Shown piece after piece: positions 1,564 through 16,724 of a DNA stretch of 32,000 nucleotides (positions within the stretch are counted from its first letter, which is position 1; each line of letters starts with the position of its first letter). The notes under the pieces were generated by a model that did no database searches, was not told the DNA's origin, and saw only the letters and a program-made list of their open reading frames with translations. The DNA is from an uncultured Roseburia sp. (GTDB lineage Bacteria > Bacillota > Clostridia > Lachnospirales > Lachnospiraceae). The position numbers and the translations under genes were made by a program. The stretch covers positions 28,568 through 60,567 of the forward strand of contig CALZGM010000013.1 of NCBI GenBank assembly GCA_945787015.1, written 5' to 3'.

Positions 1564-1647
1564 GTGACGGTTGCGTACGATTGCGACGATTATTTCTATA
1601 CCAGCACCGCTATATAAAATACCGTCGCAACCGTCGCTAATCGTCAC
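1564..1647. repeat. Iteron-like imperfect inverted repeat built from ACGRTTGCG units around an AT-rich spacer
   Basis: Units acggttgcg (1567-1575), acgattgcg (1577-1585) and acgattat (1586-1593). Inverted copies cgcaaccgt (1626-1634) and cgctaatcgt (1635-1644). Outer arms gtgacg/cgtcac. Confidence 0.6.
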
Positions 1648-2801
1648 GCTCTCTGTTCTAATGTCAGTTTAATCATTCGTGAACTGTGTCCTCGTTTACT
1701 CTCGTACCGAATACCATAATCCATAAATAAACGCTCCATGCCGATGTTTAATTTTCTTGTAAGGATGTTTGGCTGCATATCCATCTCCGGCAAAAGCTGT
1801 AACAATTCCGAAGCGGTTCCGATCCACTGAGGCTGTTCCTCTGATACCACCTTTGCAATCGCTTCCAGCACCGGATCAGCAGGCTCTTTCCAAAGCTCCG
1901 TTTCTGCTTTTGTCAGCTTCCACACACACTGTTCTCTGTCAAAATCGAGAAGCAGTCGCTGGTCTTGCTGGTCACGTCCTGCCACCTCTAAAACCGCTTT
2001 ATTATCCGTCCTCTTTTCCTTCTGCATGACAAATGCTCCGTCCGCAGCTCCCAGCAATCCATTTGTGCCGGAAATCATATCAAAGCTGTCAGAGGACTCC
2101 ATCTTTCTTGTGTGGTGCACCACCAGCAGACAGATACCATGCTCATCACTAAAGGCTTTCAGCTTGGTTACAATCTCATAGTCACTGGCATAGCTGAATT
2201 TATCTCCACCAAGTTCCCTTACCTTCTGCAAGGTATCAATGATAATCAGCCTTGCGTCTGTATGCTCTTTTACGAACTGGTTAAGCTGTTCTTCCAATCC
2301 TTCATTTAGAGTTTTGGACTGTGTGGCAAAGTAGAAATTTTCACTGCTTTCTATACCAAACATCCTTGATAAACGCTTCTGCAATCTTGCATAATCATCC
2401 TCTAATGCCAGATACAAAACAGTGCCCTTCCGCACCGGATAATCCCACAAATCAAGCCCCATGCTTACATGGTAGCCGAGCTGTGCCATAAAGAAGGATT
2501 TCCCTACCTTTGGTGCGCCCACAAATAGATAAGTACCTGCATAGATCAGTCCGTCCACAATCGGTATCTTGGGTGGATAAGCAGTATCGTAAAGTTCTGT
2601 CATGGATACTGTCTCTAATCCATCAATCCTATCTCTTTTCTCTGCCGTAACTTCCGCACCGGAACCACGATTATTTGTGGCTTGCAGATTGCCCTTATCG
2701 GGCAAATCTGCTATACTTTCCTTGTTAGTTTTACATAGTGACTGCTTCCCATCTGCGCCAACAGATGGAACCGGAGCAGTCGCTTTTTCTTTTACACTCA
2801 T
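1644..2801 (-). CDS. RepA/DnaB-like RecA-fold ATPase (AAA_25-type), probably the replication or mobilization helicase of the element
   Basis: Walker A motif GAPKVGKS and Walker B-like motif ARLIIIDTLQ. The ATG overlaps the mobC stop codon. Confidence 0.75.
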   Translation of the reverse strand: MSVKEKATAPVPSVGADGKQSLCKTNKESIADLPDKGNLQATNNRGSGAEVTAEKRDRIDGLETVSMTELYDTAYPPKIPIVDGLIYAGTYLFVGAPKVGKSFFMAQLGYHVSMGLDLWDYPVRKGTVLYLALEDDYARLQKRLSRMFGIESSENFYFATQSKTLNEGLEEQLNQFVKEHTDARLIIIDTLQKVRELGGDKFSYASDYEIVTKLKAFSDEHGICLLVVHHTRKMESSDSFDMISGTNGLLGAADGAFVMQKEKRTDNKAVLEVAGRDQQDQRLLLDFDREQCVWKLTKAETELWKEPADPVLEAIAKVVSEEQPQWIGTASELLQLLPEMDMQPNILTRKLNIGMERLFMDYGIRYESKRGHSSRMIKLTLEQRA

Positions 2802-3121
2802 TCACTCTCTCCTCTCAATCCATTCATGGTTTCCGCTATCAGTTGGATTGTGTAAAGCAATTCGTCATTTGCTTCACTGCAACTCTCCAGACGCTTCAGT
2901 TCCTCATAAATATCTGCCATCTGATTTCTTAATGCCTTATACACTCTCGGATTACCCTGTACCACCACATCACGGCACTGCAACCGTCTGATAATATAGT
3001 CCTGCTTGGTAAGACCGGATAATGCCACACAATTGTCAATCAGCTTTGCTTCTTCCTCTGATACCCGAAATCCCACAAGTTTGTTTCTCCAGCGTCCTTT
3101 GCTGTCTAAATTTTTCTCCAT
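2798..3121 (-). CDS. mobC: MobC-family relaxosome accessory protein (ribbon-helix-helix)
   Basis: RWRNKLVGFRVSEEEAKLIDNCVALSGLTKQDYIIRRL matches the MobC pattern. The ATG at 3121 overlaps the integrase stop codon (ATGA-type junction). Confidence 0.7.
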   Translation of the reverse strand: MEKNLDSKGRWRNKLVGFRVSEEEAKLIDNCVALSGLTKQDYIIRRLQCRDVVVQGNPRVYKALRNQMADIYEELKRLESCSEANDELLYTIQLIAETMNGLRGESE

Positions 3122-4203
3122 CAATCCATCTCTCCTTTTCCCATTCGCTCAATGTCCAATTTATCTGCCATTTCCGTCTGCTTCGTTGGAAATAAATGTG
3201 CATACCGGTAAGTAATATCAATACTTTCATGTCCTACCCTTTCCGCAATCGCCAGAGCAGAAAATCCCATCTCAATCAAAAGTGAAATCGCACTGTGACG
3301 AAGATCATGGATGCGGATACGCTTGACTCCTGCTGCCTTTGCCCCTCTGTCCATCTCATGGTGCAGATACGACTTGGTAATCTGGAACAGCCTTTCATCC
3401 TCCCCAATCTCATACAGCATACCAATATACTCTTGCATTTCCTCACACAAAAACTTCGGCATTTTAATTGTCCGGTTACTTTTCTTGGTTTTCGGTGTGG
3501 TAATCACATCCCTGCCATTCAACCGCTGATAGGACTTATTGATGGTCAGCTCCTGACGCTCGAAATTAAAGTCCTTTGGTGTAAGGGCAAGCAGCTCCCC
3601 ACACCGGATTCCCGTCCAATAGAGCATTTCAAACGCATAATAGGAAACAGGCTTATCCATCATCACATCCGCAAATTTCAGATATTCCTCTTTCGTCCAG
3701 AACAGCATTTCCTTGTGTTCCTCGCTTCCCATCGATCCGGCTCTCTGCGCCGGATTGGAAGGCAAATGATAATATCTTACTGCATGATTGAAAATGGCAC
3801 TGAGCTGGCTGTGGATGGTTTTAAGGTAAGTTGGGGAATACACTTCCCCATTCTCTCCCTTATAGGCAAGAAGCTCATTCTGCCAGGCAATCACATCCTT
3901 TGGCTCAATCTCCGCAATCTTACGCTCCCCGAAATAAGGAAGTATCTTGGTACGGATAATATGGCTTTTGGACTCCCATGTGTTCTCCTTTACCCGTTTT
4001 TTCTTGTCGGCTTCATAAATCTCAAAGAAGCTGGCAAAAGTCATATCCAGCTTGGACTCACTTTTTAACATCACCTCCCTCTCCCATGCTTGTGCTTCTC
4101 GTTTGGTTGCAAAACCACGTTTCTGTGTCTGTTTCCGCTCTCCCTTATAATTGGTATAGCGGTAAATGACACGCCATTTGTCACCATCTTTATATACAGC
4201 CAT
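3121..4203 (-). CDS. int: Tyrosine site-specific integrase
   Basis: N-terminal arm-binding-type domain (MAVYKDGDKWRVIYRY...REAQAWE). Catalytic pattern TGIRCGELLAL ... HDLRHS ... GHESIDITYRYAHL (R, H-x-x-R, H, Y). Confidence 0.9.
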   Translation of the reverse strand: MAVYKDGDKWRVIYRYTNYKGERKQTQKRGFATKREAQAWEREVMLKSESKLDMTFASFFEIYEADKKKRVKENTWESKSHIIRTKILPYFGERKIAEIEPKDVIAWQNELLAYKGENGEVYSPTYLKTIHSQLSAIFNHAVRYYHLPSNPAQRAGSMGSEEHKEMLFWTKEEYLKFADVMMDKPVSYYAFEMLYWTGIRCGELLALTPKDFNFERQELTINKSYQRLNGRDVITTPKTKKSNRTIKMPKFLCEEMQEYIGMLYEIGEDERLFQITKSYLHHEMDRGAKAAGVKRIRIHDLRHSAISLLIEMGFSALAIAERVGHESIDITYRYAHLFPTKQTEMADKLDIERMGKGEMD

Positions 4204-4218
4204 AACATCATCTCCTCT

Positions 4219-4398
4219 CTATTCGCTGTAACATAACTTCTTGCGAAAGAAGTTGGTATTCACTCTTCCGGTAACTGTCAAATACCCAAGCTTCTGCATT
4301 TCCGCATTCAGCTCTCTGACAACCTTGTATGCATAGGACTTGGAAACATTAAGCTCCTGTGCCACTTCATCCACCGTCATAAAGTTCTTATTCTCCAT
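4219..4398 (-). CDS. xis: Excisionase / MerR-type HTH DNA-binding protein
   Basis: MENKNFMTVDEVAQELNVSKSYAYKVVRELN... The RBS aagggggA lies 6 nt before the ATG at 4398. It sits directly upstream of int. Confidence 0.75.
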   Translation of the reverse strand: MENKNFMTVDEVAQELNVSKSYAYKVVRELNAEMQKLGYLTVTGRVNTNFFRKKLCYSE

Positions 4399-4603
4399 GT
4401 GGATTCCCCCTTTCTTCAAAATTTTGTTTGCCGCTCTCCCTTACACTTTCCTGACAGGTTGCCTTGCGTGGTACTTTGTCGTGTTTCCATCCCTTCGTAC
4501 GCTCACTTTCGGTCATCGCATATTTTTCCGGATGGTATCTGCTCGGACGGTCATTTAGTTTTAACTTAACTTACTTTGTTTAAGTTTCTGTTTTGTATAA
4601 TAC

Positions 4604-4711
4604 TAAACATTTTCCGTTAAGTCAAGTGGTTTTCAGAATAATCTTAAACATTTTTATTTAAGTTCTTCTTGCTATACTCATTAACACATGTTATACTCTA
4701 CTTAAACATTT
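4604..4711. promoter_or_regulatory. Three copies of TAAACATTT in the xis / XRE divergent control region; candidate operators
   Basis: taaacattt at 4604-4612, 4645-4653 and 4703-4711. An inverted partial copy, gtttaag, lies at 4577-4583. Confidence 0.5.
4669..4697 (+). promoter_or_regulatory. Sigma-A-type promoter for the XRE repressor
   Basis: TTGCTA (4669-4674), 17-nt spacer, TATACT (4692-4697). The predicted transcription start falls on the third TAAACATTT copy. Confidence 0.5.
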
Positions 4712-4760
4712 CTGTTTTACTTAACAGATAAATGGCAACAACATGACAGGAGGCATTACT

Positions 4761-5321
4761 ATGGCAATCGGGCAACGAATTCGATTTTTCCGTAACAGAA
4801 AAGGCATGACACAAAAGCAGCTTGGAGAAGTCCTCGGCTTTCTTGGCAAGACTTCTGATGTCCGTATGGCACAATATGAATCAGAATCAAGAGTACCCAA
4901 GCATGATCTCGTAAAAGAAATGGCTGGTATCTTTGATGTCAGCACCCATGCACTTACCGTACCGGATATAGATACCTACATCGGTCTTATGCATACCTTT
5001 TTCGCATTGGAAGATATGTATGGACTGAAAATTGACGAAATGGATGGTGAAGTAGTCTTACGTTTGGATAAGTCCGACTATTCTACCTATTCCTCAATGG
5101 ATAAAATGCTCCGTGCATGGCTCGCCGAAGCTAAAAAGCTGGAGAATGGCGAAAGCACCAAAGAGGAATATGATAACTGGCGTTATAAATATCCGGAACT
5201 GGATACACACCAAGTCTGGGCTAAGGTTCCTTCACAGGAAATCAGCGATATGCTTCTCGCCGGATTAAAAGAAATGGAAAAAGAAGAAAAGAAAGAAACC
5301 AAACGCAAAATGAAAAAATAA
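4761..5321 (+). CDS. XRE-family HTH transcriptional regulator (repressor of the element)
   Basis: MAIGQRIRFFRNRKGMTQKQLGEVLG is an HTH_3 pattern. The RBS aggagg (4748-4753) lies 7 nt before the ATG at 4761. Confidence 0.8.
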   Translation: MAIGQRIRFFRNRKGMTQKQLGEVLGFLGKTSDVRMAQYESESRVPKHDLVKEMAGIFDVSTHALTVPDIDTYIGLMHTFFALEDMYGLKIDEMDGEVVLRLDKSDYSTYSSMDKMLRAWLAEAKKLENGESTKEEYDNWRYKYPELDTHQVWAKVPSQEISDMLLAGLKEMEKEEKKETKRKMKK

Positions 5322-5498: not shown

Positions 5499-7055
5499 TT
5501 ACTCAAACTCAATTGTTCCGGGTGGCTTACTGGTCAAGTCGTAGAATACTCTGTTGACCCCGCGCACCTCATTTATAATTCGGCTCATCACAGTTTGAAG
5601 TACCTCGAACGGAATCTCTGCAGCCTCTGCTGTCATGAAGTCAATGGTATTGACTGCTCTTAAGGCAACCGCGTAGTCGTAGGTTCTTTCGTCGCCCATG
5701 ACGCCTACGGAACGCATATTGGTAAGTGCTGCGAAATACTGGCCGATGTTGCGGTCAAGGCCGGCTTTTGCGATTTCCTCACGGTAAATCGCATCGGCAT
5801 CCTGCACGATGCGCACTTTTTCAGCGGTTACTTCTCCGATGATACGGATGCCAAGCCCCGGTCCCGGGAATGGCTGACGGAATACAAGATGTTCCGGTAT
5901 TCCAAGCTCTAAGCCGGCTTTACGAACCTCGTCCTTGAAGAGGTCACGGAGTGGTTCAATGATTTCCTTGAAATCAACGCAATCCGGAAGGCCTCCAACG
6001 TTGTGGTGGGATTTGATGACTGCGGATTCACCGCCGAGACCACTCTCTACCACGTCAGGATAGATGGTTCCCTGTACGAGGAAATCAACAGCGCCGATTT
6101 TCTTTGCTTCTTCTTCAAATACACGGATAAATTCTTCACCGATGATTTTACGTTTGCGTTCAGGCTCTTCTACACCTGCGAGCTTACTGTAAAAACGCTC
6201 CTGTGCATTTACACGGATAAAGTTCAATTTATATGGGCCATCCGGTCCGAATACTGCCTCAACCTCATCGCCCTCATTTTTTCTAAGAAGGCCATGGTCT
6301 ACAAAGACGCAAGTGAGCTGCTCACCAATTGCTTTTGCAAGCATAACTGCGGCAACAGAGGAATCCACGCCGCCGGACAATGCGCAAAGCACTTTGCCGT
6401 CTCCGACTTTTTCACGAATGGTTTTGATGGAGTTCTCAACAAAGGAATCCATTCTCCAGGTTCCTGCACAGCCACAGACTCCACGAACGAAGTTGCGAAG
6501 CATCTTGGTTCCTTCCTGTGTGTGAAGTACTTCCGGATGGAACTGGATTGCATACAGATTTTTTTCACGATTTTCTGCTGCAGCAACCGGGCAGTCTGCG
6601 GTATGTGCCACGATGGAAAATCCCGGTGCAATTTTAGAAATATAATCAAAATGACTCATCCAGCAAATTGTTTTTTCGCTGACATCTGTAAAAAGCGGGG
6701 ATGCCGTATTTACGAAGACTTCTGTCTTACCATACTCGCGTACCGGTGCTTTTTCTACTTTGCCGCCAAGTACATGCATCATCAGCTGTGCGCCATAGCA
6801 AAGGCCCAGTACCGGAATGCCCAGTTCGAATAATTCTTTGGTGTAAGTCGGTGCGCCTTCCTCATAGCAGCTGTTTGGTCCGCCTGTTAAAATGATACCC
6901 ATTGGCTTCATTGCTTTAATCTGCTCGATATCGGTACGATATGAATAGATTTCACAATAAACGTTGCATTCTCTGACACGTCTTGCAACCAGCTGGTTGT
7001 ACTGACCGCCAAAGTCAATGACAATCACTTTTTCTTTGGAAATGTCGTTTCCCAT
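5499..7055 (-). CDS. guaA: GMP synthase (glutamine-hydrolysing)
   Basis: GATase start [16 protein letters not shown]-PPase motif SGGVDSS, canonical C-terminus KPPGTIEFE. Confidence 0.97.
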
Positions 7056-9306: not shown

Positions 9307-10821
9307 ATGTCACAAACAGTAAAATTGACACCGGATACACTAAAGGCTTTACATGAAGTAAATCCAATGCTCGTATCCTACAATGTTGAGTTTGCAGAGG
9401 TTACTGGGGGTACCTTCTGGAAAGCTTACACACCGGGGCAGATTGCCGGCACTGAGCCTTTTATTGTACAGCCAACTGCAGATGGTATTGCAGCAATGTA
9501 CAAAGATTTGATGCAGGTATATCCTCCTATTGATCTGTATAACGAAAAGCTCCGCAAATTAGCAAAGGATTTAGGTCCTGCATGGGTTCGTGTTTCCGGA
9601 ACCTGGGCTACCAAAACCTACTATGATTTTGATGGCACTACAAACGGCGTTGTACCGGAAGGTTATCTTAATGTATTAACAAAGGAACAGTGGATTGGCG
9701 TTCTTGATTTTGTAAAAGCGATTGGTGCCAAGTTAATGGTATCCGTTTCGAACTGTCCGGGTCTTCACACCGCAGAGGAACCATGGAATCCTTCCGAAGC
9801 AGAAAAACTTTTCGGTCTGAGCAAAGAATACGGTGTTCCGATTAATGGCGCAGAATTTACAAATGAGCCTAATATGATGGAAGAAACCGGTTTTCCGAAG
9901 GGCTACACTGCAGAACACTACCGCAGAGACCACGATTTATTCTTTTCCTGGTTAGAGGAAAACTATCCGGAATGTATCAAAATTGGGCCCAGCACAACAG
10001 GCGGCGATAATATCTCTTTTGGGAAAGGCGGCGGTGTTGAGCAGCTTGTTGGAGAAACCGTGGGATGTGACGACCTTGTTGGCGGCACAAAGACAAAATT
10101 AGATGTGTTCAGTTATCATTATTACAATGGTGTTTCTGACCGTCTCGCATCTGTGATGCCAAACGCCCACTGGCAGCCGGAAGAAGCAACTTCCGAAGCA
10201 TACTTAGATACCGCATTAAACTTCTGCCGTACTTACCGCCCGTTCCGTGACAAATATGTTCCGGGAGGCGAAATGTGGGTAACCGAGTCCGGCGATGCAG
10301 GCGGCGGTGGTGACACCTGGGCTTCCACCTATCTGGATGTTATCCGTACGTTAAACGAACTTGGTGGTTTTGCATCTTTAACAAACGGTGTCATTTTCCA
10401 CAACACCCTTGCTTCTTCAGATTATGGCTATCTTGCACGTCAGGTATTTGACCCAAGACCGAATTATTTTGCAGTCCTGTTGTGGAACCGCTTAATGGGT
10501 ACTACTGCTTACGATTCAGGTGAACCAATCCGTGAGGGAGCACATGTTTATGTTCATTCCCGCAAAGATGGCAAAGAAGGTAAGGTTTACTTAGTCATCA
10601 ACAATTCAAGAACGGAAACTACAACCGTTGAACTGCCGAAGGACGCAGAGCGCTATACCTTAGCAGGTTTAGACGGCAACGTTCGCGCTACAGTTATGAC
10701 CTTAAACGGCAATCCGTTAACCTTAGGTGAAGGCTATGCTCTTCCGGAATTAAAACCGGTTGCACAGGCTGCCGGAACTGTAGAGTTAGCGCCTTGCACT
10801 TGTACGTTCTTTGTATTATAA
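9307..10821 (+). CDS. Glycoside hydrolase, GH79 / heparanase-like (beta-glucuronidase type); no signal peptide seen
   Basis: Acid/base motif AEFTNEPN and nucleophile motif WVTESGDAGGGG resemble heparanase NEPN and GETSSAYGGG. RBS aaaggagaag lies upstream. Confidence 0.7.
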   Translation: MSQTVKLTPDTLKALHEVNPMLVSYNVEFAEVTGGTFWKAYTPGQIAGTEPFIVQPTADGIAAMYKDLMQVYPPIDLYNEKLRKLAKDLGPAWVRVSGTWATKTYYDFDGTTNGVVPEGYLNVLTKEQWIGVLDFVKAIGAKLMVSVSNCPGLHTAEEPWNPSEAEKLFGLSKEYGVPINGAEFTNEPNMMEETGFPKGYTAEHYRRDHDLFFSWLEENYPECIKIGPSTTGGDNISFGKGGGVEQLVGETVGCDDLVGGTKTKLDVFSYHYYNGVSDRLASVMPNAHWQPEEATSEAYLDTALNFCRTYRPFRDKYVPGGEMWVTESGDAGGGGDTWASTYLDVIRTLNELGGFASLTNGVIFHNTLASSDYGYLARQVFDPRPNYFAVLLWNRLMGTTAYDSGEPIREGAHVYVHSRKDGKEGKVYLVINNSRTETTTVELPKDAERYTLAGLDGNVRATVMTLNGNPLTLGEGYALPELKPVAQAAGTVELAPCTCTFFVL

Positions 10822-11149: not shown

Positions 11150-11410
11150 TCACCTGTGCCCTTCCATATGTAAGTATTTTTCTCTTGTTGCAAGTCCACC
11201 ACGCAAATGCCGTTCTGCCTTATTTACATCCAGCACTTTCCTTACTTCTGCCGCAAGCGAAGCATTTACCTGCACTAATCGTTCTGTGCAATCCTTATGT
11301 ACGGTCGACTTACTGATTCCAAAATGTTTTGCGGCCTGTCTTACTGTTGTGTTGTTGTCAATAATATAACGCGCAATCTCCATTGCACGCTCTTCAATAT
11401 ATCCTTTCAA
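11150..11410 (-). CDS. spoIIID: Stage III sporulation transcription factor SpoIIID
   Basis: (M)KGYIEERAMEIARYIIDNNTTVRQAAKHFGISKSTVHKDCTERL aligns with B. subtilis SpoIIID MHDYIKERTIKIGKYIVETKKTVR...VSKSTVHKDLTERL. TTG start at 11410, with RBS AGGGGA 5-6 nt upstream. Confidence 0.9.
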   Translation of the reverse strand: MKGYIEERAMEIARYIIDNNTTVRQAAKHFGISKSTVHKDCTERLVQVNASLAAEVRKVLDVNKAERHLRGGLATREKYLHMEGHR

Positions 11411-11455
11411 AAAAATCCCCTGCAATACTTGTTTTTACATTGTATGCAGGGGATT
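11337..11455. repeat. 119-bp direct repeat, copy 1 (functional spoIIID 5' end, RBS, promoter -10 and hairpin)
   Basis: Matches 15370-15488 at 117 of 119 positions. The mismatches are at 11350/15383 and 11409/15442. Confidence 0.95.
11413..11452 (-). terminator. Hairpin plus T-run ending the nucleotidyltransferase gene; it overlaps the spoIIID promoter and RBS
   Basis: Minus strand: cccctgcatac...gtattgcagggg followed by attttttt. Confidence 0.6.
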
Positions 11456-11467: not shown

Positions 11468-12196
11468 CTATTTTCCATTATCCGTCACATGTTTTTTCGC
11501 CTTAGCAGCTAATAAAATCTCGGCAAGATTGTCACCATTAAGCACACCCGGATAATCTTCCTGGAATTCAACTAATACATCCTTATTTTCCTGTTCAAGT
11601 TCTCTGCACTGCTTGTAAAAAGCATGCAAATTTTCTTTCTTATAAACAGCCTCGATAAAAACTCTGGCATCTTCTGGTATTCGGCTATAAGAATCGTATA
11701 AATCGATTATAGCCTTTTGAATTTTTTCAAATGTCAATGGCTCATTCCGTTCTTCCTGCTCAATCAACACACCTACAATATCAGATAAATCATTTTTATA
11801 TTGGCGTCCTGCCATGAGTTTCATTGCTACAAGATATTCAGCTGATACTGTTCTAATCTGTAAAACATTTGCAAAAGTCTTATAATACTTTGAATACTCT
11901 ACCAATCTTGGCGTATAGGAATTGGTATTAATAAAGTCTGTATTTAACCATCCAACCGGAAGACCAAGTCTATCTCCTACTGTGTTGATTGCATCCTTCA
12001 TAGACCCGGAAGACTGAATAATTGCATCTATGTCATAGGTCATTTCCCGAAAACCATAATTAATAAGAATTGCTGCCCCACCAATCAGAATAATCTCCGC
12101 CGGCATTCTGGTACCATTCTTTTTACGAAACTCTTTTGCCAGTTCTTTTAGATAACCATCCAGATTTTCCTTTGTAAATGGTTTATCAACAGACAT
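11468..12196 (-). CDS. Pol-beta-fold nucleotidyltransferase, AbiEii/MenT-like putative toxin
   Basis: NTase signature LIGGAAILINYGFREMTYDIDAI (GG, 13 residues, then DxD; compare AbiEii GGTAL...R.S.DlD). It overlaps the upstream HTH gene by 11 nt. Confidence 0.6.
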   Translation of the reverse strand: MSVDKPFTKENLDGYLKELAKEFRKKNGTRMPAEIILIGGAAILINYGFREMTYDIDAIIQSSGSMKDAINTVGDRLGLPVGWLNTDFINTNSYTPRLVEYSKYYKTFANVLQIRTVSAEYLVAMKLMAGRQYKNDLSDIVGVLIEQEERNEPLTFEKIQKAIIDLYDSYSRIPEDARVFIEAVYKKENLHAFYKQCRELEQENKDVLVEFQEDYPGVLNGDNLAEILLAAKAKKHVTDNGK

Positions 12197-12767
12197 TTCG
12201 CACCTCGCTTTCTACGATATTAAATTGTATAAATTCAGGTATTGCATTCGCAAGTGCTTTTTCTTTTATACTTTCATCTCCGGTTGCAGCATATGACACA
12301 ACTACACTCGCAGGAAAATATGGTTTTTCAAGCTTCCGAGAACGAATATCATTATAATTTGTGCAGATGGGCAAACCGTTTATTCTGGATAAATAGTCAA
12401 TCATTGCCAGCAGATACAATGCTTCTCTATACCATCTACGCTCATAAAGCCTTCGTATTTCATCCGTTTCAAGTGTTTCAATAATAAAATCAATATCGCC
12501 CATATCCTTCACCTGATGACAAGTATTACTCTTAAATGTCTCAAAAGAGAATCTGTAATCCGTCCTGTCTGCGTTATTGTTCTCCAATATTGAATCAACA
12601 GTTACTCCAAGAACCTTAGCAATCCTATATAAAGTTCCAGCTGCACACTTATCGAGGTCTGCTTTGCCGCTACAAATATCTGTGATAGTTGTCATTGCGA
12701 CTCCGCTTTCTTTACTTAAGCGATATCTCGACATATTTTCTTTTTCAAGTAAATCATTTACAATCAT
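12186..12767 (-). CDS. XRE-type HTH protein with an uncharacterised C-terminal domain; putative antitoxin or regulator
   Basis: HTH segment MSRYRLSKESGVAMTTITDICSGKADLDKCAAGTLYRIAKVLGVTVDSIL. RBS aaggaggg lies 7 nt before the ATG at 12767. Confidence 0.7.
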   Translation of the reverse strand: MIVNDLLEKENMSRYRLSKESGVAMTTITDICSGKADLDKCAAGTLYRIAKVLGVTVDSILENNNADRTDYRFSFETFKSNTCHQVKDMGDIDFIIETLETDEIRRLYERRWYREALYLLAMIDYLSRINGLPICTNYNDIRSRKLEKPYFPASVVVSYAATGDESIKEKALANAIPEFIQFNIVESEVRNVC

Positions 12768-12788
12768 CAGCTTTCCCTCCTTTTTCAT

Positions 12789-13018: not shown

Positions 13019-15091
13019 CTACCAAGCCAACTGACATTCATGTTTCTTAAAGAAATCCACTCTCGGTTCCAGATACTCCAATTTATGTTTCTCTACATCT
13101 CCAACATAAAATGCAATAGGCTCAAAAATATGATTCCAATCCCACAATTCTTCTCCCACATTTAGATATTCTCTAAACATTTCACATCCTTCCGGTGCAA
13201 TTGGATGAACTAAAATCGCCATAATCTTACAAGCATAAAAGCAATCCAAAATAAGCTGCTTTCTATATTCCATATCACCTGTTGCATCGGCAATTTTTAC
13301 ATTATTTACCCAGTGCTTGTTTACCCGCCGTATAAAATCATCCAAAACATATGAAATTCGATGGAACTCATGGTTATACATATGACGCTCATAGTCAAGC
13401 ACCGCTTTTTCAGCCAAAGTCTTTATTTCCTCACTCACTTCTCCCTCAGGAATTCTACCATCACAATTGTTCTGAATTGCATAAAAACAGGTGCGAATCA
13501 GACGATTAAACACATTGGTAATTAAATTGCCATCTTTCAAAACCATATCAACCCCAACACGTTCTTCCTCTTTCATAAACACCTGTGGTTTAAAACCTAC
13601 ACTTTTTGAGGACAGCCCTAAACTCATAAAATGCATTCGCAGCTGATCCTTAGTGTAATAATCAAGCAACTCATCCGCCGTAGGTGGCTTTATTTCTGAA
13701 CTACTACTGGCTTTTGTATCCATATACAATAAATGTCGGTTAGCAATAATATGAGATAAATGTACCTTCTCCATATTCGGCACTTCCCCTTTAGGAACCT
13801 GTAATCCTGTAAATAATCCGGTCTGAGCAATCGCATAGAAATAAATATTATCTTCCCCAATAAACTGATAAACTGTAGATTCATCATCATACCACCACTT
13901 GGACAAATCATCTTCCTTTTCCTTCTCCCTTAAATATGCTAAAGTAAAGGAAATTGGTGCCCATAACGACTCCGGCCACACCCAGAATGTCAAGTCTTTT
14001 AAATCTTCACATTCCGGAAAAGGTACTCCCCATTCTACATTGCCGGACAGTCGAAACGGAACCAATGTCTTTCCAGAAGTATAATGAATATTTTCCGCAT
14101 CCAAAACACTTTTCGCCTTGTCTCTGTCATCCAGGTTTTCAAATTCGAAGACAACAGAAGGTTTCTTCTCCTCATCAATCAGTTTATGAGGTGGTAATTT
14201 TTCGATTAATTTTTCCAAATCAACTATATATTTTCTAGGCACATAAATATAAGGCTTCTTCAAAAATTCTTCTACGGTTTCTAACTGATACTTACGGGTG
14301 TTTGTATTTTTGCGCAAAAAATCATTATATTCCTTTACCATATCGATACAATGTTCTAAGTCAAAATACCAATTCTTAACATCTTTAAGAACAGGCTTTT
14401 TATTCGACAGACAACTGATAGGACCTATAAGTTCAGAAGGCAAAAACTGGTGTCCCAGTGAACATTCATCTGCGTATGCTTTGTCTGAGGTACATCCCGG
14501 TATCGGGCATTTTCCTATTACCTGTCTTCCGTTTAAAAACATCTTCTTTTCCTCATCATAAAACTGTGGCACAGACAATTTCTGAATATACCCGTTCTCA
14601 TATAAAGTTCGAAATACTCTAGCTGATACACGTTTATGAATTGTTCCTGCCTCTTCTAAAGCCGACGCGCCAAAAAAGTCCAAACTAATACCATAGTTTT
14701 CCAAGGTCTTCTTCTGTCTCTCGTGATTACCACGTACATAGTCCTTAAGCGTTCCTTCATATCCCACTTCCTGCAGTTTGCGATAACTTTCCATAATAGG
14801 CGAGCCGTAACAGTCAGTTCCGGAAAGAAAAATAACATTCTCTTTTCCAATTCTGTCTCTTAAAAATCTTGCAAAAATATCAGCATGTATAAACATACCG
14901 CCTACGTGTCCAAAATGCAGGTTCTTATTTCCATAAGGCATACCTGCCGTAATAATTGCCCTTTTAGGAAATGTCGGGCGTTCATTTGATGTTAATCGTT
15001 TACATATCATATACATTTGTTCCTTTCTGTTATTTACTATGATTTTTCCCTGCTTCCCCTTCTGCTGGGGAAGCTCTGACTGTTCCGGCAT
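13019..15091 (-). CDS. metG: Divergent methionine--tRNA ligase paralog (class I aaRS)
   Basis: HIGH motif PYGNKNLHFGH, Zn-knuckle-like CPIPGCTSDKAYADEC, and MetRS-like LRMHFMSLGLSS. The KMSKS position reads TKASSSS. RBS aggagg lies 6 nt before the ATG at 15091. Confidence 0.75.
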   Translation of the reverse strand: MPEQSELPQQKGKQGKIIVNNRKEQMYMICKRLTSNERPTFPKRAIITAGMPYGNKNLHFGHVGGMFIHADIFARFLRDRIGKENVIFLSGTDCYGSPIMESYRKLQEVGYEGTLKDYVRGNHERQKKTLENYGISLDFFGASALEEAGTIHKRVSARVFRTLYENGYIQKLSVPQFYDEEKKMFLNGRQVIGKCPIPGCTSDKAYADECSLGHQFLPSELIGPISCLSNKKPVLKDVKNWYFDLEHCIDMVKEYNDFLRKNTNTRKYQLETVEEFLKKPYIYVPRKYIVDLEKLIEKLPPHKLIDEEKKPSVVFEFENLDDRDKAKSVLDAENIHYTSGKTLVPFRLSGNVEWGVPFPECEDLKDLTFWVWPESLWAPISFTLAYLREKEKEDDLSKWWYDDESTVYQFIGEDNIYFYAIAQTGLFTGLQVPKGEVPNMEKVHLSHIIANRHLLYMDTKASSSSEIKPPTADELLDYYTKDQLRMHFMSLGLSSKSVGFKPQVFMKEEERVGVDMVLKDGNLITNVFNRLIRTCFYAIQNNCDGRIPEGEVSEEIKTLAEKAVLDYERHMYNHEFHRISYVLDDFIRRVNKHWVNNVKIADATGDMEYRKQLILDCFYACKIMAILVHPIAPEGCEMFREYLNVGEELWDWNHIFEPIAFYVGDVEKHKLEYLEPRVDFFKKHECQLAW

Positions 15092-15136
15092 GGTACACCT
15101 CCTTTCCGATTTTTCAAATCGATGAAGTTTGCTCAC

Positions 15137-15177
15137 AAAAAAACGGTCAAAAACTCGCATTGAGCTTTCGACCGTTT
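15137..15177 (-). terminator. Intrinsic terminator / attenuator inside the MetRS leader
   Basis: Minus strand: aaacggtc (15177-15170), 21-nt loop, gaccgttt (15148-15141), then ttttt. It lies about 45 nt upstream of the MetRS start codon. Confidence 0.65.
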
Positions 15178-15205: not shown

Positions 15206-15298
15206 TTATGAACACAACACAAAAAGCCCATTGTCAGTTTTAACAATAAGCTGCTGTTGCTGGTTCATTTTGTTCATGCTAATTGATAATTTAATCAT
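15206..15298 (-). CDS. Possible 30-codon leader ORF (MIKLSISMNKMNQQQQLIVKTDNGLFVLCS)
   Basis: Own translation. RBS aaggaagga lies 8 nt upstream. It sits between the promoter and the attenuator terminator. There is no further support. Confidence 0.25.
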   Translation of the reverse strand: MIKLSISMNKMNQQQQLIVKTDNGLFVLCS

Positions 15299-15325: not shown

Positions 15326-15354
15326 ATTCTATCAGTAGTGATATGCATTGTCAA
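15326..15354 (-). promoter_or_regulatory. Consensus sigma-A promoter of the MetRS paralog
   Basis: Minus strand: TTGACA (15354-15349), 17-nt spacer, TAGAAT (15331-15326). Confidence 0.65.
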
Positions 15355-15369
15355 TATGAAATATCTGTT

Positions 15370-15443
15370 TGTCTTACTGTTGAGTTGTTGTCAATAATAT
15401 AACGCGCAATCTCCATTGCACGCTCTTCAATATATCCTTTCCA
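15370..15443 (-). pseudogene. Orphan 5' fragment of spoIIID (about 25 codons, start codon TTG mutated to TGG)
   Basis: The minus strand reads tgg aaa gga tat att gaa gag cgt gca atg gag att gcg cgt tat att att gac aac aac. Homology to spoIIID ends at 15370. Confidence 0.8.
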
Positions 15444-15488
15444 AAAAATCCCCTGCAATACTTGTTTTTACATTGTATGCAGGGGATT
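15370..15488. repeat. 119-bp direct repeat, copy 2
   Basis: See copy 1. It contains the same hairpin/T-run, which here terminates the histidine phosphatase gene, and the same CATACAAT element. Confidence 0.95.
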
Positions 15489-16130: not shown

Positions 16131-16724
16131 TCAATCTATCCTTATCACATGCGAACTCGTCTGTGCTTTTATAGACACACCATTCCATCTATAATCGTAC
16201 AATTCAACATCTTCCGGTGTAACAGATAAGTAGTCTCCATTCATACCTTGAATTCGGATTTCTTCATCATGAATCTCCACATCCACGTACAATGCCTGTT
16301 TATATAAAAGCATTCCGTGCAAATAACCATATTTCTTTTTCAGTTCTTCTGAACTCACAATTTGAGCACCACACCATACATAAGCAGCTGAATTAACAGT
16401 ATAGTACGGAATGTCATTAACAACTGTAAACGCATCTCCATGATCATGTCCATTCATGCATAACAATATATCCTTCCCCTGAAACAGCCTTCTTATCTCT
16501 TCTCTATTATAAATACCTCTATCCCTATGTTCATTCACAAGACTGTGGTGTGAAAAAATAATATACTTTTTTCTGTCACTCAATTCCCTTTTCAGCCATT
16601 CTATTTCGTCTTCCGGAATGATTGGATAGATGGAATTAGCCTCCCTATAAGTTCTTCTATAGTAAGCGCTTTCCTGACCATCCTTACTGAAATAACAAGA
16701 GTTCAAAACAATAAACTTAATCAT
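16131..16724 (-). CDS. Metallophosphoesterase C-terminal half (motifs I-III absent)
   Basis: Only the late motifs are present (FSHHSL and NGHDHGD). No DxH, GDxxD or GNHE motif is found. Only 76 bp separate its start from the aroK stop codon. Confidence 0.6.
   Translation of the reverse strand: MIKFIVLNSCYFSKDGQESAYYRRTYREANSIYPIIPEDEIEWLKRELSDRKKYIIFSHHSLVNEHRDRGIYNREEIRRLFQGKDILLCMNGHDHGDAFTVVNDIPYYTVNSAAYVWCGAQIVSSEELKKKYGYLHGMLLYKQALYVDVEIHDEEIRIQGMNGDYLSVTPEDVELYDYRWNGVSIKAQTSSHVIRID

Follow-up and report, generated by a model that had tools for sequence, protein, structure and literature searches.

A class I synthetase of methionyl-tRNA synthetase fold behind a glutamine-codon leader in Lachnospiraceae, a candidate charging enzyme for tRNA-Gln

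The DNA analysed here (the window) is a stretch of 32,000 nucleotides from an uncultured Roseburia sp. (assembly GCA_945787015.1, contig CALZGM010000013.1, positions 28,568 to 60,567). Its minus strand carries a gene for a class I aminoacyl-tRNA synthetase with the predicted fold of methionyl-tRNA synthetase (MetRS), preceded by a promoter, a short leader open reading frame (ORF) with four consecutive Gln codons and an intrinsic terminator. A preliminary description had presented the gene as an island-borne, divergent MetRS paralog with an altered catalytic loop and an N-terminal extension. From its sequence, its structural model and its regulation the enzyme is, on balance, read here as an inducible tRNA-Gln charging enzyme and a candidate non-canonical glutaminyl-tRNA synthetase (GlnRS). 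The following features were located in the gene.

13019-15010, minus strand: conserved coding sequence of the MetRS-fold enzyme, 663 residues plus stop codon.
14906-14917, minus strand: HIGH motif (HFGH), with the clade-specific YGNK just before it, from motif alignment.
14450-14509, minus strand: zinc knuckle CPIPGC…C…H, probably of C3H type, with the clade-specific LNGRQV just before it, from alignment.
14057-14254, minus strand: insertion of about 60-66 residues in the connective-peptide domain, common to the Bdellovibrionota MetRS clade, from alignment.
13700-13714, minus strand: KASSS loop where KMSKS stands in MetRS, from alignment.

The protein matched the Pfam model tRNA-synt_1g (PF09334) at 1.8e-67, and its best solved relatives were the MetRS of P. 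abyssi and E. coli. An AlphaFold (AF2) model was built from 30 family members and reached a pLDDT of 87. The 50 best PDB matches of this model were all MetRS, with 1rqg and 1qqt as the top entries in Foldseek (TM 0.68/0.81). The fold, as modelled, is that of MetRS and has the elements of the type-2 (E. coli/archaeal-type) enzymes: a Rossmann core with HIGH, a connective-peptide zinc knuckle and a helical anticodon-binding domain. The connective-peptide insertion was modelled as a small alpha/beta unit, and C168, C173, C183 and H187 of the knuckle were invariant in 30 sequences. Only models of MetRS, LeuRS and IleRS type matched the protein; the models of the GlnRS catalytic domain (Pfam tRNA-synt_1c / TIGR00440) gave no match.

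In the alignment the KASSS loop stands opposite E. coli KMSKS and P. abyssi KFSTS, and QLRMHF…LGLSS opposite SLRYYY…KLSS of MetRS. The HIGH-type motif, zinc knuckle, LSS segment and KASSS loop named in the preliminary description are all present, and its placing of the loop was upheld by alignment to MetRS structures. The second catalytic lysine is absent, as it had stated. This loss is not remarkable by itself, because bona fide MetRS of archaeal and Bacteroidota type carry KFSTS, KVSTS or KISTS at this position. The loss does speak for a catalytically dead pseudo-synthetase that binds tRNA-Gln or has a regulatory role, as does the replacement of the methionine and the following arginine of the motif. 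Such a protein is nevertheless improbable here, given how much stays invariant among sequences 51-90% identical: HFGH, the amino-group Asp (D66), the zinc ligands, the first lysine of the loop and some 190 further positions. Natural MetRS with KFSTS or KVSTS exist, a new invariant lysine (in YGNK) stands beside HIGH, and the T-box control of relatives described below is typical of enzymes that restore charging.

The window protein scored well under the cut-offs of the NCBIfam metG equivalogs, with 243.7 bits against 587 for NF001100, 203.7 against 336 for TIGR00398 and 82.7 against 598 for NF008900. Its relatives likewise fell under these cut-offs. The gene is a divergent MetRS-family paralog and not a standard metG, as had been proposed.

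Relatives were found in more than 140 loci of Lachnospiraceae, Clostridium, Fusibacter, Vallitalea, Ruminococcus, Monoglobus and Collinsella. The protein search returned more than 100 clusters at 78-94% identity, and there were 191 matches below 1e-30 among 1.84 billion cluster representatives. Relatives were present in 59 species genomes and in 80 metagenome loci (54-93% identity). Cultured carriers include Vallitalea pronyensis, Clostridium amylolyticum and Fusibacter, and further carriers are Ruminococcus albus 7 (megaplasmid pRUMAL02), Monoglobus pectinilyticus and Collinsella aerofaciens. The current names of the relatives are 'class I tRNA ligase family protein' or, for example from JGI pipelines, 'methionyl-tRNA synthetase'. 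Phage carriage of clade members was looked for and none was found. On another contig of the metagenome-assembled genome (MAG) that holds L036, a partial second copy (L057, 3262-3579; residues 133-238, 81% identity) lies together with a copy of the leader, and could be a pseudogene or an assembly duplicate.

The clade, here called the KASSS clade, was defined from a motif table and a neighbour-joining tree. It is monophyletic, marked by YGNK before HIGH, DCYG, LNGRQV, LWAPISF and K(A/I)(S/A)SS, and is a conserved class I synthetase clade derived from MetRS. Its sister is the MetRS of Bdellovibrionota (Halobacteriovorax, Bacteriovorax, Oligoflexus), which keeps KMSKS and has the connective-peptide insertion of about 60 residues and a WPES insertion in common with it. 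Several of these Bdellovibrionota enzymes (P0271, P0284, P0307, P0308 and others) also failed to reach the NCBIfam metG cut-offs, and 'class I tRNA ligase family protein' is the only name that some of the entries bear. Unlike MetRS, the clade has KASSS for KMSKS, YGNK for YANGP, DCYG for DDHG, LNGRQV for LPDRYV and LWAPISF for LIAPISF, a conserved N-terminal RPxFPKR, no C-terminal tRNA-binding (Trbp111-like) domain and metG scores under cut-off. The preliminary description had reckoned with an ordinary housekeeping enzyme if this were the only MetRS gene of the genome and KASSS a clade-wide norm; the K(A/I)(S/A)SS loop is the rule across the whole protein clade, and this clade is read as a paralog family, not the MetRS of its hosts.

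The Met-specificity positions L13, Y260 and H301 of E. coli MetRS are M, F and Y both in the KASSS clade and in the sister Bdellovibrionota MetRS. Because the sister enzymes have the same residues, these positions alone indicate no new amino-acid specificity; their use as proof of a new amino acid was considered and is weakened by this sharing. The equivalents of D52, Y15 and W253 are retained in the window protein. W461 of E. coli MetRS, the tryptophan that stacks on C34, is replaced by I, L, V or T in the clade.

Upstream of the gene the following leader elements were identified.

15326-15354, minus strand: sigma-70-type promoter, TTGACA and TAGAAT with a 17-nucleotide, TG-extended spacer, 11 of 12 consensus positions matching.
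15206-15298, minus strand: leader ORF (uORF1) of 30 codons, MIKLSISMNKMNQQQQLIVKTDNGLFVLCS, with Shine-Dalgarno sequence AAGGAAGGA, present in 61 loci.
15251-15262, minus strand: uninterrupted run of four Gln codons (CAG CAA CAG CAG) proposed to do the sensing, invariant as Gln in 61 loci.
15208-15268, minus strand: hairpin inside uORF1, with codons 11-19 as segment 1 and codons 21-30 as segment 2, from the minimum free energy fold and the RNAalifold consensus.
15222-15229, minus strand: GGGCUUUU, part of segment 2 and proposed as one of the two antiterminator strands, invariant in the leader alignment.
15162-15169, minus strand: GAAAGCUC in the 5' arm of the terminator, the partner antiterminator strand, from pairing prediction.
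15134-15177, minus strand: intrinsic terminator with a 16-bp stem, a 5-nucleotide loop and a U-run, from terminator prediction, with compensatory pairs UA/CG, GC/AU/CG and CG/UA.

This leader system was found in 61 loci (the window and 60 Lachnospiraceae loci), where it replaces the T-box of other relatives. No T-box or other known RNA was detected in the window with Rfam (including RF00230) at the gathering threshold or at an E-value ≤ 10. The promoter is conserved in nearly all Lachnospiraceae loci. Insertions and deletions within uORF1 are all multiples of three, and the length of 30 codons is retained even where the N-terminal half is unrelated (e.g. MVYLSDSKAIMNQQQQ…, MGYISKNMTNMNQQQQ…). 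The Gln codons swap synonymously between CAA and CAG from lineage to lineage. Codons 8 and 11, which are Met in the window, vary among I, T, L, G, K and A, and QQQQ never varies. Attenuation through the Met codons was considered and rejected for this reason.

The leader is highly conserved, and its minimum free energy fold had a z of -6.2 against shuffled controls. An RNAalifold consensus was computed from 18 diverse leaders. It contains a long-range helix that sequesters the leader Shine-Dalgarno sequence, a hairpin with the Gln codons in its 5' arm, and the terminator; 15 of its 49 pairs have compensatory double changes. Compensatory changes were also seen in the uORF1 hairpin of locus L079, and the hairpin is proposed to act as anti-antiterminator and pause hairpin. 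In the antiterminator pairing a G>A is matched by a C>U in locus L031, and the L076 group reads GCCC. An inner hairpin of uORF1 (15225-15252, minus strand) is followed by the U-run UUUUGUGUUG and was flagged as resembling a terminator. RNA polymerase may pause here, which would couple transcription to translation of the leader.

Co-transcriptional folding was modelled with a ribosome footprint on the Gln codons masked and the 3' arm of the terminator left out. For 46 of 50 sequences the prediction then paired the 5' arm of the terminator with the 3' half of uORF1, which is left free. This pairing is that of GGGCUUUU with GAAAGCUC, plus flanking helices.

A T-box (RF00230) lies directly upstream of relatives at 52-69% identity and scored 94-123 bits against a gathering score of 93. 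The specifier frame was calibrated on the neighbouring T-boxes of locus L040 (valS GAA-GUA-G, argS GAA-G-AGG-G). In this frame about 30 loci have a specifier loop of the form GAA-N-CAA-G-N, and about 10 have GAA-N-CAG-G-C. The specifier is read as Gln, because CAA and CAG are synonymous only as Gln. No specifier other than Gln, and never AUG, was found in these roughly 40 T-boxes. A Lys frame (AAG) was also tried and rejected: its next base is any of the four, the CAG variants would give AGG (Arg), and UGGC does not fit A73. The T-box bulge is UGGC in all CAG T-boxes and in most of the CAA ones. Such a bulge pairs with the discriminator G73 that marks bacterial tRNA-Gln; tRNA-Met and tRNA-Lys have A73, which it does not fit (identity Table 1, PMC9976931). 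A tRNA-Gln gene was sought in the loci for a direct reading of the discriminator base, and none was present. Locus L040 (5649-14775) has three T-box-controlled synthetase genes in a row: argS (AGG), the MetRS-like gene (CAA) and valS (GUA). A third group of relatives (59-65% identity) has plain promoters, short 5' untranslated regions and no leader. Taken over the clade, the regulation is very probably Gln-specific.

These sensors bear on the function that had been suggested for the gene, that of a genuine second MetRS charging tRNA-Met, for instance an inhibitor-resistant one, whose Gln-linked regulation would be incidental. The MetRS fold, the intact HIGH motif, the retained D52, Y15 and W253 equivalents, the pocket resembling that of Bdellovibrionota MetRS and the naming of relatives by the JGI pipelines agree with such a role. 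It is very unlikely all the same. AUG is the specifier in none of the approximately 40 T-boxes, a UGGC bulge cannot match the A73 that tRNA-Met has, the leader conserves QQQQ and not its Met codons, the metG scores lie far under cut-off and the W461 equivalent is replaced. The same Gln T-boxes and invariant leader QQQQ count against the other function that had been offered, the pseudo-synthetase. MetRS2 of S. pneumoniae and B. anthracis is likewise a second MetRS-family gene in a Firmicute with a variable genomic context. It is an ordinary type-2 MetRS with KMSKS and charges tRNA-Met, whereas members of the KASSS clade stay under the metG cut-offs and are linked to sensors of tRNA-Gln. The part of the earlier account that the results favour is its suggestion of neofunctionalisation: the gene has the look of a neofunctionalised copy and, in Lachnospiraceae, of an inducible accessory gene.

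Least credible of all is a tRNA-independent amino-acid ligase for a secondary metabolite, comparable to the MetRS-like domain of hydrazine synthetases. MetRS-like enzymes of this kind exist (PMC12376268). For such a role a cupin domain, fused or paired, and a biosynthetic cluster would be expected. The window protein has no cupin domain and no biosynthetic neighbours, retains the full helical anticodon-binding domain and belongs to a clade regulated through tRNA sensing.

In Monoglobus the MetRS-like gene lies 47 nucleotides downstream of a co-oriented gltX, and on pRUMAL02 of R. albus it is preceded by a 55%-identical gene resembling that of glutamyl-tRNA synthetase (GluRS) and by a small ORF (Monoglobus and R. 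albus loci: L148, 2241-5962; L146, 131-4468). Both loci have plain promoters, and no T-box was found in them. The upstream GluRS or GluRS-like gene in Monoglobus and R. albus 7 encodes a long (548-552 residues) protein of bacterial type. The R. albus copy scored just under the gltX cut-off, and pRUMAL02 is a conjugative megaplasmid. Flank searches of the loci found a single GlnRS. It lies at 17971-19650 of L010, a MAG from the Lachnospiraceae, 6 kb from a copy of the MetRS-like gene with 87% identity. This GlnRS is 51% identical to E. coli GlnS and has an ordinary short 5' untranslated region with no leader or attenuator.

The linkage to a GluRS-like gene also agrees with an enzyme that acts on tRNA-Gln and loads another amino acid, either Glu, as a GluRS2-like enzyme feeding GatCAB, or the ancestral Met. 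In the Met variant, Gln codons would be mistranslated in a regulated manner during Gln starvation. The Met-pocket residues shared with the sister MetRS clade fit this, a T-box or attenuator senses only whether tRNA-Gln is acylated and not with what, and Glu is among the amino acids used by the MetRS-like domains of hydrazine synthetases (PMC12376268). Loading of another amino acid is nonetheless considered unlikely. In some lineages the gene is expressed constitutively or cotranscribed with gltX, and a mischarging enzyme made in this way would do harm; the work of a GluRS2 analogue is already done by a non-discriminating GluRS; and the invariant changes that mark the clade close to its pocket (I>W in LWAPISF, DH>CY, G>K) hint at a different substrate.

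Because Gln-specific sensors control its expression, the enzyme most likely aminoacylates tRNA-Gln, and this substrate can be called probable from the sequence evidence. The T-box and the leader attenuator, two unrelated devices, both report the charging of tRNA-Gln, and the third set of relatives is coupled to GluRS, so that the simplest reading is an enzyme that restores tRNA-Gln charging. The role in making Gln-tRNA-Gln is drawn from the Gln-specific regulation and the gltX linkage. That the amino acid loaded is Gln has, at best, about an even chance.

In the mechanism we propose, a constitutive promoter would give a leader of about 230 nucleotides, and a ribosome would translate its 30-codon ORF. 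Where Gln-tRNA-Gln is scarce, the ribosome would stall on the four Gln codons in the 5' arm of the internal hairpin. The freed 3' arm (GGGCUUUU…GUUCA) would then pair with the 5' half of the terminator that follows, and transcription would continue into the enzyme gene. Without a stall, the terminator would form. In more distant relatives the same decision would be taken by the Gln-specifier T-box riboswitch. The product would most probably be Gln-tRNA-Gln, and the enzyme a GlnRS not homologous to the canonical one. It would serve Lachnospiraceae as an inducible second route beside canonical GlnRS, and other lineages as a constitutive partner of GluRS.

Four points weigh against this reading. 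In equilibrium folding the terminator was predicted to win even with a stalled ribosome, and only the co-transcriptional modelling supports antitermination, which would thus depend on kinetics, as it does in classical attenuators. The amino-acid pocket is, by its residues, not obviously re-tooled for Gln. A KASSS loop without the second lysine could mean lower activity, though MetRS of the KFSTS type are active. In L010, with canonical GlnRS beside the MetRS-like gene, the need for a second enzyme is unexplained.

The likeness of the enzyme to canonical GlnRS (class Ib, tRNA-synt_1c) would be a functional analogy only, in the proposed product Gln-tRNA-Gln and in induction linked to tRNA-Gln; the two have no homology beyond the class I Rossmann core, and they coexist in L010. 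Closer in regulation are the T-box-controlled second synthetase copies of Firmicutes (thrZ, tyrZ, lysK and the mupirocin-resistant ileS2), which are also accessory and induced by the undercharged cognate tRNA; a T-box-regulated class I lysK is described in B. cereus (PMC2916919). Those genes are second copies of the expected family or of a known alternative class, whereas in the KASSS clade the fold (MetRS) and the sensed tRNA (tRNA-Gln, not tRNA-Met) disagree. With the trpL, hisL and pheST attenuators the window leader has in common a promoter, a short translated ORF whose regulatory codons stand in a row within the first hairpin arm, and alternative antiterminator and terminator structures. 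It differs from them in its Gln codons, its Firmicute host, the absence of an Rfam family and the additional long-range helix that sequesters the leader Shine-Dalgarno sequence. Firmicutes usually use T-boxes where attenuators act elsewhere, and we know of no described Gln-codon attenuator. A literature search found no paper on a MetRS-like GlnRS, the KASSS clade or a Gln-codon leader.

The N-terminal extension of about 47 residues in the preliminary description was re-examined with the start sites. One further feature is needed here.

15011-15091, minus strand: MPEQSELPQQKGK… ORF with a strong Shine-Dalgarno sequence, in the window in frame with the enzyme as a 27-residue extension, in other species a separate upstream ORF.

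The minus-strand ORF spans 13019-15160 when counted from its first ATG at 15160. The start at 15091 (MPEQSELP…) that had been chosen does have a strong Shine-Dalgarno sequence, GGAAAGGAGGTG, upstream. The segment it opens (MPEQSELPQ…) lies mostly outside the conserved protein and is out of frame, stopped or missing in about 10 of 37 species. The start common to all species is MICKRL, at ATG 15010 in the window, with its own Shine-Dalgarno sequence AGAAAGGAA, and leaves only about 17 residues before the Rossmann fold. Most of the 47-residue extension comes from an upstream ORF that is joined to the gene in frame, and ATG 15010 is the conserved start. The MPEQSELPQQKGK… ORF itself holds three Gln codons and could be a second checkpoint or a translational coupling device.

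DNA homology to the relatives runs from 13026, just past the stop codon, to about 15370, which covers the coding sequence and about 270 nucleotides of leader. Relatives occupy differing chromosomal contexts, and no conserved neighbour or operon partner was found within ±6 kb in 55 Lachnospiraceae loci. The closest relatives, L002 and L038, have in common with the window a loose order of the gene, spoIIID and guaA. A direct repeat of 117 nucleotides with 2 mismatches, made up of a terminator hairpin and the first ~20 codons of spoIIID, was found in the window.

11337-11453, minus strand: copy 1 of the direct repeat, at the 5' end of the real spoIIID gene (11150-11425, minus strand), from repeat comparison.
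15369-15486, minus strand: copy 2, terminator hairpin and spoIIID 5'-end fragment, with 2 mismatches to copy 1.

The repeat brackets a 3.9-kb block with the promoter, the leader, the MetRS-like gene and genes for a helix-turn-helix (HTH) protein and a DUF6036 protein. The block was probably inserted or duplicated at spoIIID, and the arrangement looks like a duplicative or Campbell-type insertion there. The earlier term 'island-borne' fits only in part. No neighbourhood is conserved among the relatives at large, the nearest ones keep the linkage to spoIIID and guaA, and the integrase element at 1.6-5.3 kb is separate from the block. That element (1644-5321) comprises an AAA_25 protein, a tyrosine integrase (3121-4203) and an HTH protein, adjoins the 3' end of guaA (5499-7055) and is a small integrative element unrelated to the MetRS-like gene. 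The overlapping HTH and DUF6036 nucleotidyltransferase genes (11468-12788, minus strand) resemble a toxin-antitoxin or AbiE-like pair, and a 93%-identical copy of the pair lies at another distance from the MetRS-like gene in L038. No Pfam match was obtained for a 504-residue ORF (9307-10821, plus strand) or a 197-residue ORF (16131-16724, minus strand); by eye the latter is like the C-terminal part of a metallophosphoesterase (GHDH motif).

A wider reading is tentative and falls a little short of an even chance. It sees in the clade a third independent route to Gln-tRNA-Gln beside GlnRS and GluRS plus GatCAB. This route would be MetRS-derived, widespread in Clostridia and present in some Actinomycetota, would sometimes form a module of GluRS and a MetRS-like GlnRS ('GlnRS-M'), and would have gained tRNA-Gln control twice, by the T-box and by a newly evolved Gln-codon attenuator. 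If tRNA-Gln is charged, a synthetase fold family would have switched its amino acid as well as its tRNA, a rare event to which the class I/class II duality of LysRS is comparable. TBDB holds 226 Gln T-boxes among about 23,500 and does not discuss their targets; the targets of many of them would be explained. New annotation would be due for thousands of database entries now called 'class I tRNA ligase family protein' or 'methionyl-tRNA synthetase', and drug programmes directed at MetRS or GlnRS in Clostridia would have to reckon with an additional enzyme. The leader would add a Gln-sensing leader-peptide attenuator to the cis-regulatory repertoire known in Firmicutes, and the view of how Gln-tRNA-Gln is formed in a large part of the gut Firmicutes would, if the reading is true, be revised.

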